DNA from: Eledone cirrhosa
Lineage: Eukaryota
Reading direction: 5' to 3'
Length of the DNA: 64,000 nt
Assembly: GCA_964016885.1 (NCBI GenBank)
Contig: CAXHJY010000449.1
Location: 1-64,000, forward strand
A model generated the notes under the pieces. That model was not told the DNA's origin. It saw only the letters and a list, made by a program, of their open reading frames with translations, and did not search any database. Shown piece after piece: positions 30,845-64,000 of this stretch. Within the stretch, counting starts at the first letter, position 1. Each line of letters begins with the position of its first letter. The translations under genes and the position numbers were made by a program.

Positions 30845-31414
30845 CTAACGTCGCTTTGTTCGTTTGTAAACAAACTGAACAGCCTGAATTTATGCCATAC
30901 GGTGTTAAGGCACTGATACGTGCATATATGTATGTGTACCTGTATGCATATGTATATGTATATGTATATATATATATGTGCGTGCTACTGTACGTCTGTA
31001 TACATATATGTATGTACGTATACATGCATACTTACATTTAAGTAAGTGCCATACTAAGAGTGAGAAATGAAATTTCGTTTTCATTTTGTTTCAATTTATC
31101 GTTTTCGGTATGCCTGACCGATTTAACTCACTCAATATGCAAATTAGGCTGCTCAGCCGTTAATTTTCATAAGGAAAGTATATACTTTCGAACGTTCAAC
31201 TATCTGGCAGATGGGTAAACGGTGCTGATGATAGCTAACAAGCTTGAAACTAGTACATCGTTCCTGTGTCAGTGTTGAACAAAAAGGTGACGTGGTTGCC
31301 TTAACACCGTATGGCATAAATTCAGGCTGTTCAGTTTGTTTACAAACGAACAAAGCGACGTTAGCGCCGCTAAACTGATACGTGCATATATGTATGTGTA
31401 CCTGTATGCATATG

Positions 31415-31445
<31 letters not shown>

Positions 31446-31568
31446 ATGTGCGTGCTACTGTACGTCTGTATACATATATGTATGTACGTATACATGCATA
31501 CTTACATTTAAGTAAGTGCCATACTAAGAGTGAGAAATGAAATTTCGTTTTCATTTTGTTTCAATTCA
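30845..31568 (+). mobile_element. Retrozyme-like family D: ~1.4 tandem monomers (period 462) with short inverted 5' arm
   Basis: 30913-31097 is repeated at 31375-31566; 30845-30912 is the reverse complement of ~31297-31363; HHR at 31218. Confidence 0.85.
31218..31262 (+). ncRNA. Minimal type I hammerhead ribozyme (family D)
   Basis: aacggtg-CTGATGA-tagct/aaca/agctt-GAAAC-TA-GTA-catcgtt. Confidence 0.9.
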
Positions 31569-31594
31569 TATATATATATATATATTTATATATA

Positions 31595-31705
31595 GTGCAA
31601 ATTTATACGGGAACAAAACAGAGAGGCAGACAAATAAAGATTTATTAGGTTCACGCTTTTGAGAGGGGGGACGTTTCGGGCATAAGCCCTTCTTCAGGAG
31701 TAGAT
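31595..31705 (-). mobile_element. Penelope-like 3' end with HHR core
   Basis: Reverse complement: CTGAAGA-a-gggc/ttat/gccc-GAAAC-GTC; stem I is not paired. A related degenerate motif lies at 21285-21320(-). Confidence 0.6.
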
Positions 31706-32317: not shown

Positions 32318-33089
<772 letters not shown>

Positions 33090-34595: not shown

Positions 34596-34709
34596 CACAT
34601 TACAACCCAAGAGCAAGAATGAAGGGTTCTTTCTGCTGACATGGATATAAAATTGAGGCTTGTCTGCATAATTACAAACGAATCGAATATTATTATTAAT
34701 TATCGAAGA

Positions 34710-34898
34710 GGGTGGTGGATTGGCAGTATCGGTAAGGGTCGGACGCCATGCTTTGAAGCATAGAGTTACCTCCCTTTATGACCTGAGTTCAAATCCCGCC
34801 GAGGTTAACTTTGCCTTTCATCCTTACGGAGTCGATAAAATAAAGTACCAGTAATGCACTGGTTAATTGCTGGCCTTGTGCCTAAAGTAGAAACAATT
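34710..34898 (+). mobile_element. tRNA-derived SINE family 1, full length
   Basis: TSD ATTATTAATTATCGAA on both sides. Confidence 0.92.
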
Positions 34899-34921
34899 AT
34901 TAATTATCGAAAAACTCACAT

Positions 34922-38367: not shown

Positions 38368-38738
38368 GGTCGGACCCTATGCTTTGACGCATAGAGTTAC
38401 GGCCCTTGCCATTCTGAGTTGTTCAAATCCGCCGGGGTTAACTTTGCCTTTCATCCTTACGGGGTCGATAAAATAAAGTACCAGCATGGCATCCGACTCT
38501 CTACCGATACTGCCAATCCACCGCGCTATATATATATATATAATATATATATGTATAATTGTTTCTACTTTAGGCACAAGGCCAGCAATTACCCAGTGCA
38601 TTACTGGTACTTTATTTTATCGACCCCGTAAGGATGAAAGGCAAAGTCAACCTCGGCGGGATTTGAACTCAGATCGTAAAGGGACATAACTATGCTGGAA
38701 AGCATGGCGTCCGACCCTCTACCGATACTGCCAATCCA
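38368..38738. mobile_element. Family-1 SINE cluster: + copy 38368-38484, inverted 5' piece 38485-38525, full - copy 38557-38738
   Basis: SINE body motifs on both strands. Confidence 0.88.
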
Positions 38739-47948: not shown

Positions 47949-48220
47949 ATATTTATATATATATATATATGTGTGTGTGTATGTGGTCTATATACATATA
48001 TATATAGAGGGAGATATATATGTATATATATATATATATTTATATATATATGTGTGTGTGTGTGCAATTGCCCCACTATGTGGATGTTTTTAATGAAAAT
48101 ACTTGTATTTTTGTATATTTTCTGAAGTCTTTGAAGATACAAGATTGAGCGAAATTAAAAGTCGATATTGAAATCCTTGAGTCGATGTTCAGATTGTATT
48201 ATATAGACACATCTATATCT

Positions 48221-48410
48221 AAGGGCGGTAGATTGGCAGTATCGGTAGAGGGTCGGACGCCATGCTTTCCAGCATAGTTACGTCCCTTTATGATCTGAGT
48301 TCACATCCCGCCGAGGTTGACTTTGCCTTTCATCCTTACGGGGTCGATAAAATAAAGTACCAGTAATGCACTGAGTAATTGCTGGCCTTGTGCCAAATGT
48401 AGAAACAATT
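48221..48410 (+). mobile_element. tRNA-derived SINE family 1, full length
   Basis: TSD ATTATATAGACACATCT. Confidence 0.92.
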
Positions 48411-48673
48411 ATATAGACACATCTCTGTGTTGTAATAATGGAGCTTGAGCGAGGCTTTTGTCGGCTTTCTTATAGAAACATGTGTAAGGAAAATAAAATG
48501 TTCGTCTCGGTTTACTATCCATTGTTGTACATTGTTATACATGTGTCTGAATGTGCGTGCGTATACATATATATATATACACATACATAGAGTATACATA
48601 CAAATGTACATACACATACATACATACATACACACATACACGCATACAAATATACATACATACTTACATGCAT

Positions 48674-49745: not shown

Positions 49746-49816
49746 TAGGAAGAGAGAGAGAGAGAGAGGGAGGAAGGGAGAGAGAGAGAAAGACCACAAA
49801 CCCTCCAGCGCAATTC

Positions 49817-49856
49817 TACTTTTGAAAAGCACAAGAACTGCGAAACCGGTAAAGGA
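49817..49856 (+). ncRNA. Variant hammerhead motif (U3-A8 core)
   Basis: ctt-TTGAAAA-gca/caagaac/tgc-GAAAC-CG-GTA-aag; stem III is palindromic ACCGGT. Confidence 0.55.
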
Positions 49857-49911
49857 ACCAAATAAATATATAAAAAAAAACTCCAGTTGCATTTTCGATT
49901 TCATCATTTTT

Positions 49912-49968
<57 letters not shown>

Positions 49969-49984
49969 TGTATACATATATATA

Positions 49985-50346
49985 TATATACATATATGTA
50001 TACAGACGTACAGTAGTATGTATATATATATACATACATGCACACATATATATATGTACGTATGGATTCACCGAACATTTATTATAATGCTCGGTGTGTT
50101 TGTAAACAGACATCCCGTATTAAGCCGTAGTGTCAAACAAACCCATCGTTGCTCGTTTGTTCAACACTGACAAAGAAACGCTGTACTAGTTTCACGCTTA
50201 TTAGCTATCGTCAGCAACGTATATCTTCCTCACAGATTGTTGAACGTATATACTTACCTTATGCATATTAACGGCTGAGTAGCCCAATTTGCATATCGAG
50301 TGGGTTAATCGGCCGGGTGCACCGAAAACGATAAATGTAAAAAATG

Positions 50347-50349
<3 letters not shown>
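49985..50349 (-). mobile_element. Retrozyme-like family D; HHR 50179-50219
   Basis: Reverse complement acgttg-CTGACGA-tagctaataagcgt-GAAACTAGTA-cagcgt. Confidence 0.85.
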
Positions 50350-57297: not shown

Positions 57298-57420
57298 ACG
57301 AAAAGTAAACAGAAAACAACAAAGCAAGCAATACAGTACAATAAAACGATATTAGTTTAAATCTTGATATAGTAGGAAAATAATCGTAACATTTCGGACG
57401 CTAGTACTTCTTCAGAGGAT
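57298..57420 (-). mobile_element. Penelope-like 3' end with degenerate HHR (family H)
   Basis: Reverse complement CTGAAGA-agtactagcgtcc-GAAATGTTA. Confidence 0.55.
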
Positions 57421-59865: not shown

Positions 59866-60464
59866 GTGCATGCGTAAAATATAATGTGTTCTGTTTTAAT
59901 AAAACTGCAGTTTTGCACCAGGTCACTCCAGGTAACAAATTTACAGTGGAATAAAAAGGAACTAAATTAGATTCGATGTGGTTCTGCTTTTAGCCTAAGG
60001 CATTCATTTTATTTCGTTTTATTTCACAGTATTTCACTGTTTTTCTTCCTTCGACATTCGTGTGTGTTTAATTGTTGAGTAAAAGAAAATTACGTAAAAG
60101 ACCAACCACTTTGACATATCTTTTTTTTTTTACAACAGTCGTAAACATGTCACTGAAACCAGTGGTTTACAAGTTTACACAATTAATGTTTCAGAAACAT
60201 TTGCAAGAAAAACCTTTCGGATGGGTTTTTCTTTTTCTGTTTCTATTTAGTTTTTTTTTTGTTTGTTTGTTTGTTTTGTCTGAGGATGTCGGGGGCGGGG
60301 GCTGTTTTCGGCTTTTTTGTCTTTTTGTTTTTTCTTTTTCTTTTTTGGTGGCGGGGTTGCTTTTTGGGTTTTTTTTCCTTCTGGGTTTTTTATTTTTTTT
60401 TGCTTTTTGGGTATTTTTTTCGAAAAGTTTATATACATATATATATATATATACATATATATAC

Positions 60465-60506
<42 letters not shown>

Positions 60507-60512
<6 letters not shown>

Positions 60513-61496
60513 GGAAAAAATGAAACGAAATTTCATTTCCCACTCTTAGTACGGCTGTTACTTAAATATAAGTATGTATACGTACATACATATATGTATA
60601 CAGACGTACAGTAGTATGTATATATATATATATACATACATGCACACATATATATATGTACGTATGGATTCACCAAACATTTATTATAATGCTCGGTGTG
60701 TTTGTAAACAAACATCCCGTATTAAGCCGTAGTGTCTAGCAACCACCGTTGCTCGTTTGTTCAACACTGACAAAGGAGCGCTGTACTAGTTTCAAGCTTG
60801 TTAGCTATCGTCAGCAACGTATACCTTCCTGCCAAATAGTTGAACGTCCGAAAGTATATACTTTCCTTATGCATATTAACGGCTGAGTAGCCCAATTTGC
60901 ATATCGAGTGGGTTAATCGGCTGGGTGCACCGAAACCGATAAATGAAAAAAATGAAACGAAATTTCATTTCCCACCATACGTACATATATATATTTGTGC
61001 ATGTATGTATATATATATACATACTACTGTACGTCTGTATACATATATGTATGTACGTATACATACTTATATTTAAGTAACAGCCGTACTAAGAGTGGGA
61101 AATGAAATTTCGTTTCATTTTTTCCGTTTATCGTTTTCGGTGCACCTGGCCGATTAACCCACTCGATATGCAAATTGGGCTACTCAGCCGTTAATATGCA
61201 TAAGGAAAGTATATACTTTCGGACGTTCAACTATCTGGCAGGAAGGTATACGTTGCTGACGATAGCTAACAAGCCTGAAACTAGTACAGCGTTCCTTTGT
61301 CAGTGTTGAACAAACGAGCAACGGTGGTTGCTAGACACTGTACGGCTTAATTCGGGATGTTTGTTTACAAACACACCGAGTATTATAATAAATGTTTGGT
61401 GAATCCATACGTACATATATACATGTGTGCATGTATGTATATATATATACATACTACTGTACGTCTGTATACATGTATGTATGTACGTATACATAC

Positions 61497-61502
<6 letters not shown>
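60507..61502. mobile_element. Retrozyme-like family D: head-to-head arms, each longer than one ~430-bp monomer
   Basis: Left arm 60507-60974(-) has period 432; right arm 60975-61502(+) has period 430. HHRs at 60779-60819(-) and 61251-61291(+). Confidence 0.9.
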
Positions 61503-61527
<25 letters not shown>

Positions 61528-61950
61528 AATTCTAACGACAAATATCTAATGGAATGAGGTAAATTATTATATCAATCTGTGTGTGAGTGTATGTGAGTAA
61601 ATGTATGTCTGTGTGTGAATGTGTATTAATGTATGTATGTACGTACGTTTATATGTATGTACGTACGTTTATATGTATATACGTACGTTTCTATGTATAT
61701 ATGCATGTACGTATGTATGTAAGTGTATGTATGTATATATGTATGTACGTACCTATGTACGTACGTATATACGTATGTATGTCCGTTTCTATGTATGCAT
61801 GTATGTATATACGTACATGTATATCTACCTCTCTATGTACATATGTACGTATCTATCTAAGTATGTATTACATATATACATATGAATATTACATATATAT
61901 TCATCTATGTACATACGTATGTATGGATGTATCTATATACGTATGTATGG

Positions 61951-64000
61951 AAGAACAAATTCAAGACCACATGGATGCATCCTGCATCTAAGGAATGGCA
62001 TCTTTTGGACTACGTCCTAGTCAGGATGCGTGACAGACAGGATGTGCAGTGTGTTCGTGTTCTTCGTGGAGCTGAGTGCTGGACGGACCACCGCCTGGTA
62101 CGCGCAAAAGTGAATCTAATCACCAAACGTAAAATCCGGGCTCCTGGTGTTACCCTGCCCAAAAGATTGAATGCTGCTCGTCTTAAGGATAAAAATGTGA
62201 AGAGGACATTGGAAGAAGAGATGCAGGCTGCAGATCTTGGTGAGGATTGGCCGACCCTTAAAAAGTCGGTTTATGATGTAGGCAGACGTGTTCTGGGATT
62301 GGTGCAGAGAAAACATCAGGACTGGTTTGATGAGAAAGATGTGCATATAGATGACTTGTTGGCTGATAAGAGGCGCGCTCTGTCACGCTACTTGACGGCA
62401 AAACCACAGGAGAGGAATACGTTGCATGAGGAGCTCAGGGATGTAAAATCACGCGTTAGGCGGAGTCTTTCTCAGATGAAGGATCAGTGGTGGAGTGAGA
62501 AGGCTGGTGAGATACAAACTGCGTCTGATTGCAATAACACAAAGCTGTTGTACAGTCTCTTGCGTGAGGTTTATGGACCGTCTTCTTCTCTGGTGACACC
62601 GATTCGCAGCAAGGATGGCAAAGAACTTCTTCGTGACTCACAGGGAATTCTACGAAGGTGGCGAGAGCACTTTGATGATCTTTTGAATCAGCCGTCTGTC
62701 GTCAGTGAAGATTTCCTCAATCTCATTCCGGAAAGTCCTGTGAAAGTAGCTCTCGCAGAACCTCCGACACTTGTGGAGGTTGCAGTGGCTATTTCGAAGC
62801 TGAACAGTGGAAGATCTCCAGGTATGGATGGCATACATGCTGAGCTCCTACAATATGGTGGTGAGAGACTCCTGCAACATCTTCACTCTCTGTTTGGAAG
62901 GATATGGGCTAATGAATCCGTGCCTGAGGACTGGAGAGATGCAGTAATGGTGGTCTTGTACAAGGGAAAGGGTAACAGGAATGATTGTGGGAACTACAGA
63001 GGTATATCATTGCTTTCTGTCGTGGGGAAAGTTTTATGTAGGGTGCTTCTGGACCGTCTGCTGACACACATTGCAGATTGTGTCCTTCCTGAAAGTCAAT
63101 CTGGTTTTCGTGTTGGACGCGGCACTACTGATATGATCTTCTCAGCTAGACAGCTCCAGGAGAAGTGCATTGAACAGGGCTTGGATCTGTATCAGGTTTT
63201 TGTCGATCTGACAAAGGCTTTCGATACTGTCAACAGAGATGCATTATGGAAGGTTCTCCAGAAACTTGGTTGCCCTGATAAGTTCCTTGCTTTAGTTAGG
63301 TCTTTCCATGACGACATGAAGGCTTGGGTTAATGTCGGAGGTAACATGTCGGAGCCTATCTCAGTAAAAAATGGAGTGAAACAGGGGGATATTCCAGCAC
63401 CGACCCTGTTTGCCATATACTTTGCAATGGTTTTCTGTATTGCATTCAGGAATTGCGAGCATGGTGTTTACATCCGATATCGAACCTCAGGCAGCATATT
63501 TAACATCAGGCGCTTTGCTGCGAAGACAAAAGTGTTTACATCGGTCATAAGAGACCTCTTGTATGCAGATGATTGCGATCTTGTAGCGCACACAGAGAGT
63601 GATATGCAGCACATTTTGAATGTATTTTCTGACGCTTGCACTGCCCTGGGTTTGACTGTCAGTCTCAAGAAAACCGTCGTCATGTACCAACCTGCACCTG
63701 GTAGGCAGTACACTGAACCAAACATCTATGTGTATGGCAAACGACTTGGAGTGGTTGATCAGTTTGTCTACCTGGGAAGCACTGTCAATCGATACGGCAA
63801 CCTTGACAGTGAAATCTCACTTAGGATTAGGAAAGCAAGTGATGCTTTCGGAAAGCTAGAAAGGCGACTCTGGGGTCGGCGAGACATATGCAGGAGGACA
63901 AAGGTAAGGGTGTACAGGGCATGTGTACTCTCTTGTCTTCTTTATGCCTGCGAGACCTGGGTCACATATCGACGCCACCTTAAGCAATTGGAGCGTTTCC
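61951..64000 (+). mobile_element. 5'-truncated RTE-clade LINE with open APE-RT ORF running off the window
   Basis: TTWMHPASKEWHLLDY..AECWTDHRLV (APE C-terminus), FVDLTKAFDTVNR, GVKQGD and LLYADD (63562), all in one frame with no stop seen. Confidence 0.95.

Follow-up and report, generated by a model that had tools for sequence, protein, structure and literature searches.

The locus near the end of the analysed window (64,000 nucleotides of Eledone cirrhosa, contig CAXHJY010000449.1) is read here as a single insertion of an abundant, non-coding repeat of 430 bases that bears a hammerhead motif. The insertion has two arms with fixed ends and lies within a TA microsatellite. A borrowed reverse transcriptase-endonuclease of the Penelope-like (PLE) type likely produced it, priming on both strands of the cut DNA and likely using a single circular RNA as template. 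We assign this reading, taken as a whole, a probability of roughly 0.6. The parts of the insertion are as follows:

60427..60506, no strand: (TA)n-rich target tract, left side, assigned from sequence
60507..60975, minus strand: arm 1, 1.08 units, with its 3' end at the distal fixed site (unit position 432) and a 5' truncation at about unit position 397
60507..60565, minus strand: 59-base tail between both fixed 3' ends, containing an AT-rich hairpin
60778..60820, minus strand: type I hammerhead motif of arm 1, core start 60814, 4-bp helix II intact, predicted cut 3' of 60784
60975..61505, plus strand: arm 2, 1.23 units, starting at unit position 272 and ending at the proximal 3' end (unit position about 373)
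61073..61131, plus strand: internal tail copy in arm 2, with 61131 as the distal fixed site
61250..61292, plus strand: type I hammerhead motif of arm 2, predicted cut after 61286
61503..61527, no strand: (TA)n plus a T-run, right side of the target, assigned from sequence

Unit positions are counted from window position 61132 (position 1), and the predicted ribozyme cut falls after unit position 155. The two arms abut head to head at 60975, with zero spacer, inside a TA tract. The segment 60563-61505 matches its own reverse complement at 90.6%, as an inverted pair would, and the arms differ from each other at 13 of 408 aligned bases. Arm 2 crosses the unit junction at 61131/61132: bases 60990-61075 match at an offset of 430 in 82 of 86 positions, as against 56 at most for the other offsets between 420 and 439. 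The period of the minus arm is 432. The longest Met-started frame in 60975-61505 has 64 aa, so the unit is non-coding; its GC content is 37%. The sequence-only reading had described a non-coding unit, read through its own junction with a period of 430-432, and this description was borne out. Its view of the locus as a simple read-through copy held for the junction but missed the inverted head-to-head pair and its second hammerhead.

As had also been claimed, each unit carries one motif that can be assigned by its core and three helices to the type I hammerheads. The focal locus contains two, on opposite strands (cores 61256+ and 60814-). In arm 2, the predicted helix I is formed by 61250-55 and 61287-92, the core occupies 61256-62, and GAAA and GUA are located at 61277-80 and 61284-61286, respectively. 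Helix III is palindromic, with six bases (61280-85), and short palindromic helices III are a form described as working in dimers (PMC4209133). Helix II of this copy has a U.U at its base and a private mismatch at 61275, where arm 2 has C and 172 of 179 aligned segments have T; the minus-strand copy in arm 1 has no such defect. The arm 2 copy, which had been put forward for a cleavage assay at 61286, thus has the GUA and the predicted cut but a mismatched helix II. The hammerhead models of Rfam, proposed as a further check, did not recognize the motif: no family reached its gathering score in the 64-kb window, and none of the 112 matches at E<=10 within 60400-61600 was to a hammerhead family, the only ones being TA-repeat matches to microRNA models.

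Comparison among the families of the repeat revealed that 7 of the 13 base pairs in the hammerhead stems change on both sides, which occurred in 0 of 500 shuffles; the sample consists of related sequences, and four of the seven depend on a single sequence of family 3. Folded as a circle, the majority unit reached -147.8 kcal/mol, versus -94.5 +/- 4.6 kcal/mol for 60 shuffles, while the 76-base hammerhead region alone folded like its shuffles (z 0.07). Neither the active monomer fold nor the active dimer fold of the hammerhead emerged from free folding or cofolding; the duplex of its palindrome was calculated at -6.8 kcal/mol. Little covariation was observed in a consensus fold of the tail region from three families, the alignment of which had slipped.

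In the 3.0-Gb assembly, 8,768 exact matches to a 23-mer inside the hammerhead were counted, together with 14,003 matches to a 20-mer downstream of the cut and 28,312 to the hammerhead core pattern (reversed controls: 0, 0 and 1, respectively). The 197 segments of the focal family (family 1) differ from its majority sequence by a median of 2.8%, and its arrays contain up to 10 units. Two relatives share the layout of the focal unit: subfamily 2, with a unit of about 460-500 bases, and a younger sister family (family 3), with a unit of about 467 bases and 5,195 matches. One contig carries, at L316, L322-L324, L328 and L330, long tandem arrays in which the focal unit is more diverged; they exceed 3.4 kb and are possible satellite-like source arrays.

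Four loci of the unit had been reported within the window, and all four were confirmed. In addition to the focal insertion, they comprise the following:

30845..31572, plus strand: subfamily 2 copy, matching the focal unit at about 78%, with an arm at 30912-31572, a distal 3' end and a hammerhead core at 31225
30845-30912: inverted stub of the subfamily 2 copy, 68 bases
32556..33066: head-to-head copy, composed of a minus arm at 32556-32893 (distal end, hammerhead core 32865) and a plus arm at 32888-33066 (proximal end)
49971..50349, minus strand: single arm with a proximal 3' end, hammerhead core 50214 and (TA)n on both sides

The subfamily 2 copy repeats at an offset of 462 (30912/31374), in agreement with the period first given for it. 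A 12-base unit, present in three copies at 30814-30852, adjoins and overlaps the end of its inverted stub and possibly reflects repeated priming or slippage. The window also contains further hammerhead-core motifs in other repeat families, at 7885-7930, 8150-8200 and 20750-20800 on the plus strand and at 21175-21225, 27430-27480, 31655-31703 and 57370-57420 on the minus strand; these are probably remnants of PLE pseudo-LTRs. Downstream of the focal insertion, at 61861-64000 (plus strand), a 713-aa open frame runs off the window end; we take its features to be those of the endonuclease and reverse transcriptase of an RTE-type LINE. A separate dispersed repeat of about 190 bases (84-97% identity, both strands) occurs in several copies within the 17225-38740 region, example copies being located at 18396-18923, 20267-20545, 22056-22241, 28308-28491, 34689-34907, 38368-38738 and 48220-48418. 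An imperfect palindrome of 600 bases (85.6%) extends over 29004-29607, and a 16-base satellite with about 408 copies over 71-6557.

Most arms of the repeat end in 3' at one of two sites. Within the window, the distal site is used at 60507, 32556 and 31572 and the proximal site at 61502, 33066 and about 49971, which accounts for six of the seven arms; the sole arm ending elsewhere is the 68-base stub at 30845. An end survey was performed on 93 non-overlapping loci with 153 arms, where the first 30 loci were the best-score matches and the other 63 the first motif matches along one contig. Overlapping loci (14), arms shorter than 60 bases, microsatellite-only matches and three arms at locus edges were left out. 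In total, 135 of the 153 arms ended at the fixed sites, 73 of them distally (424-434) and 62 proximally (366-381), and 18 ended at other positions; in the contig-ordered subset of 63 loci, the proportion was 92 of 107 arms. The two points are 59 bases apart, and most of the fixed ends in the 3' junction listing run directly into (TA)n. In the independent runs X1 and X2, the distal end (61131), with (AT)n after it, again had the best support of all loose ends, and it was also seen in X4 (second organism). The copies had originally been described as starting and stopping at different points of the unit. This is correct for the 5' ends, which are scattered over the whole unit, but the argument from arbitrary ends is wrong for the 3' ends because both sites are fixed, as in the PLE tail. 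The origin that had been proposed, as integrated cDNA of a circular or concatemeric RNA, is favoured instead by the insertion anatomy, by the A>G marks described below and by the failure to find an ORF joined to a unit in 140 loci.

The two sites are combined in a regular manner. Of 48 head-to-head pairs, 38 have both ends fixed, and 37 of these 38 consist of one distal and one proximal end; with a duplicated locus removed, the count is 36 of 37 (p 2.7e-10). In new loci inspected by eye, one-of-each pairs made up 6 of 6 in family 1 and 10 of 11 in family 3. The unpaired arms ended at the distal site in 31 cases, at the proximal site in 18 and elsewhere in nine. In the twin priming model of LINE-1, the end of the inverted arm coincides with the beginning of the other arm. 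Here the inverted arm stops at a fixed site regardless of where the 5' end of its partner lies, and a LINE-1-style origin was rejected.

Taken together, the insertion footprint of the focal family is clearly that of a PLE. Partial tandems, an inverted 5'-truncated copy, a tail that is often present at a single end and a bias for (TA)n have all been described as PLE traits (PMC8557442), and purified PLE protein cuts and extends both strands, using two internal start sites that bound the tail and are alike on the two strands (PMC11167929). The genome contains 10,596 GIY-YIG candidates, and frames combining reverse transcriptase and GIY-YIG domains (Pfam) reach 938 aa and more. Two such coding families, L187 and PLE-A, exhibit a two-end anatomy and pairing like those of the unit; tails of about 52 and 63 bases were found in two coding PLE families, compared with 59 in the unit. 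Nine opposite-strand neighbours of PLE-A comprised six pairs of a tailed and a tail-less copy, two with one aberrant end and one with two tails.

One PLE-A copy is found in the window itself: the 3' end of this young coding family occupies 49790-49915 (plus strand), tail to tail with the unit copy at 49971 and sharing its TA tract. The family has 13,227 exact motif matches in the genome, and in its hammerhead-like motif U and A replace the core bases C3 and G8, a swap also present in two other PLE families. PLE-A, which has a 938-aa frame and a CxxxxCxxC linker as in Neptune, Nematis and Naiad, was considered as the helper of the unit in view of its T-rich end. It was not assigned as such, as the T-rich end proved to be the PLE-A proximal site and the 63-base tail is unlike that of the unit.

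The fixed 3' ends, the tail, the inversion and the PLE-type hammerhead are all found in PLE ends as well, and the copies could in principle be merely the 5'-truncated ends (pseudo-LTRs) of a coding PLE. We consider this the remotest of the explanations weighed here, since upstream of a unit lies another unit and not an ORF, and 0 of 140 loci sampled from thousands had a joined PLE frame. Nine of these 140 loci had a PLE protein match in flanks of 1.5-2 kb, none of which was continuous with the 5' end of the unit, and the two closest co-oriented cases were separate insertions across a TA tract. Coding families drawn from 40 of the 10,596 GIY-YIG candidates showed no homology to the unit in their 3' regions. 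Within this sample, the element is non-autonomous. Fixed ends shared by fragments of a longer coding element had been named in the sequence-only reading as one part of the finding that would speak against it; fixed ends were found, but such fragments were not, in 140 loci. The unit is probably a non-autonomous PLE-type retrozyme whose template was one RNA, likely circular and sometimes edited, with both cut DNA strands as primers.

The form of the template can be approached through the predicted cut. A cut linear monomer would be expected to stop the cDNAs at unit position 156. A first count of 5' ends at the cut (4 of 153) came from hammerhead-selected loci; because selecting on the hammerhead biased this count, it was redone with a motif located 9 bases downstream of the cut. 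Of 100 matches, four had 5' ends in unit positions 146-164, equal to the background of 4-7 per 20-base bin upstream, and run-off of the cDNA at the ribozyme cut was thereby rejected. At the family level, 23 of the 153 arms cross the predicted cut twice or more, which is not the case at the focal locus with its two hammerheads on opposite strands. A cut monomer might nevertheless serve as template if precise template jumping of the reverse transcriptase allowed it to be re-entered, giving tandem copies without a covalent circle. Such jumping would account for identical units in both arms and for haplotype switches within an arm, but neither an excess of 5' ends at the cut (the same 4 of 100) nor scars at the cut in 20 identical segments were found, and we regard it as improbable.

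The 20 segments belong to a family 3 insertion (locus A), where they are identical across both arms save for one junction base. They prove nothing alone, because the haplotype is not the private barcode for which it was taken: it has 69 matches at seven loci, one of them beside an assembly gap. In 33 of 36 pairs, an arm was more similar to its partner than to the median unrelated arm, a likeness that fits one template and also gene conversion. Gene conversion can make inverted arms uniform, and tandem arrays can be polished by assemblers. More specific is a second family 3 insertion (L376), which carries two A>G changes in all of the 7 and 8 covering segments of both arms; the joint pattern has six genome matches, every one at this insertion, although a source allele missing from the assembly could also explain it. 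A family 3 clone (L283/L284 and L303-L309) has three A>G in one stem and seven near-identical insertions of up to about 26 units, and is probably still active.

The direction of the changes was analyzed on the RNA strand. Among rare variants common to all units of an insertion, A>G exceeded T>C by 5:1 and 4:0 in two sets of family 1 and by 11:0 and 6:1 in two sets of family 3, whereas unit-private variants were divided 50:52 in family 1 and 6:17 in family 3. The pooled counts are 26:2 for shared and 56:69 for private variants (Fisher p 1.5e-6), in a test that was prompted by locus A (3 of 26 changes) and in which rarity cut-offs differ between sets. Two fresh variant sets gave 10:1 together, neither being significant alone (p 0.065 and 0.13). 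Unit positions 262-378 in family 1 and 293-304 in family 3 were left out of the counts, and sites 434, 439 and 197 recur among the A>G. Of 12 candidate edited sites in family 3, ten fall in predicted stems, versus 61% of all A. ADARs disfavour a 5' G. At these 12 sites no ADAR-type bias of the 5' neighbour was seen, G preceding three of them versus 23 of 151 of all A. We read the strand-biased shared A>G as A-to-I editing of the template, copied into each unit, for which a monomer circle is the simplest explanation. The signs of a circular, edited RNA are indirect but specific, and the strongest of them come from family 3 and not from the focal family.

The most serious competitor retains the element and the PLE enzyme, and replaces the circle with an uncut linear multimeric transcript of an existing array, the hammerhead being a passenger or acting at another step. 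The fixed ends, the pairing, the reading through the cut and the A>G bias fit such a template equally well, and PLE insertion in vitro was unaffected by hammerhead mutants and used uncut linear RNA as its main substrate (PMC11167929). Copying of a mixed array would also agree with the changes of haplotype within an arm, observed in an insertion on contig 744, which a single monomer circle cannot give, and with three arrays of alternating A-B units (L105, L063 and L290). The dimer period of these arrays fits dimer circles or DNA-level duplication. In L288, a 3-unit period occupies part of one arm only. Against a linear multimer, units edited independently of one another would not come to share two identical A>G throughout both arms at one locus only. 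Moreover, 5' truncation only shortens, and young insertions reach about 18 units per arm and 26 in both. We consider the linear template unlikely, though less so than the other competitors.

A further alternative is elongation of short PLE-type insertions at the DNA level, by slippage or unequal exchange with homogenisation by gene conversion. Local DNA amplification was proposed for retrozymes in 10.64898/2026.07.22.740005, and long degenerate arrays with a higher-order period do exist in this genome (L105; L316-L330). Such processes would not produce an A>G strand bias restricted to shared variants, and they would need to affect the two arms equally and yet spare both fixed ends; we judge this route very improbable.

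For the copying of a circular RNA by a PLE enzyme, the following course is proposed. Tandem units would be transcribed, and pairs of hammerheads, by analogy with known retrozymes, would cut as dimers through the palindromic helix III, after which a host ligase would close monomer or dimer circles. The structured RNA would sometimes be A-to-I edited, as suggested by the strand-biased A>G. A presumed PLE protein would nick both (TA)n strands, with unit position 432 as the start on one strand and about 373 on the other; each of these ends finishes in U-A-U, which can pair with the target. The arms themselves show that each cDNA extends past the ribozyme site and across the unit junction, to a variable extent, and that the 5' ends of the two are joined head to head. 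Single arms with one end or the other, which are observed as well, would arise where the second arm was not made or was lost. In its full form, the proposal has a dimer of the PLE enzyme hold a single ribozyme RNA, circular and ADAR-edited, by its tail, prime one cut strand per tail end and write the edits into all units of both arms, so that the insertions record rolling-circle reverse transcription from two ends; in our estimate it stands at even odds.

As an element, the unit is an ordinary new member of a class already known. Its footprints bear on the movement of animal retrozymes and on the role of the hammerhead and tail in PLEs, and they can be counted in both the focal and the sister family, as paired start sites, the absence of a stop at the cut and edits common to both arms. 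If circles are indeed copied from two ends, this would tie retrozyme circles to PLE enzymes, would explain the rule by which PLE tails occur at one end, and would mean that RNA editing contributes heritable changes to such elements. The model is testable in vitro, because the same genome also holds young coding PLEs with long frames.

By sequence criteria, the focal family is an animal non-LTR retrozyme, a kind already in print (PMC7229834; 10.64898/2026.07.22.740005). As described in the available parts of these reports, such retrozymes are likewise non-coding tandem units of a few hundred bases with GC below 50%, one type I hammerhead per unit, strong self-pairing and thousands of copies, in genomes that also contain PLEs. 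The U.U at the base of helix II is shared with HHR_Amex2 of axolotl. Circles and cleavage were demonstrated there, whereas the present unit is known from the assembly, and of nine Xenopus retrozyme dimers, one was cut in vitro (10.64898/2026.07.22.740005). Rolling-circle copying by a PLE was proposed, and not shown, for retrozymes in both sources. Fixed 3' ends, a tail, paired inverted arms and genomic edits are not described for retrozymes in the text available of either, and the word 'inverted' is absent from that of PMC7229834.

In terms of taxonomic range, no cephalopod is named in the accessible text of PMC7229834 or PMC7761336, the sampling of Li, Clavereau and Pollet (2026), as far as their text is available, included no mollusc (10.64898/2026.07.22.740005), and the giant squid genome paper gives 235 hammerhead 1 matches, with no analysis of them in the accessible text (PMC6962438). 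In a literature search with thin coverage of subscription titles and with supplements outside its scope, no report was found of a cephalopod retrozyme, of edits fixed in retrozyme copies, or of fixed ends or arm pairing in retrozymes.

The type I hammerheads of PLEs and other metazoan sequences (PMC4209133) likewise have a 6-bp helix I, a 4-bp helix II and a 2-bp helix III with a 2-base palindromic loop, and both they and the hammerhead of the unit are predicted to work as dimers; unlike them, that of the unit is not recognized by Rfam models. The MRC1-type elements of Chlamys (PMC8557442) are also non-autonomous PLE derivatives with multicopy head-to-tail insertions. Their 3' end resembles that of an autonomous family and they mostly lack hammerheads, whereas among the coding families sampled here none with an end matching the unit was found.

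The closest likeness in insertion anatomy is that to the EN+ PLEs (PMC8557442, PMC11167929), the described insertions of which likewise combine 5' truncation of variable extent and partial tandems with an inverted 5'-truncated arm and an often one-ended tail, and also show two internal start sites, AT-rich or (TA)n targets and a hammerhead upstream of the starts. In contrast to these, the unit has no ORF, and its entire length is pseudo-LTR-like. Its tail comprises 59 bases, versus 30-40 in the printed PLEs, and its arms were counted in strict one-of-each pairs, whereas the PLE enzyme in vitro showed no strand difference in start site (PMC11167929).
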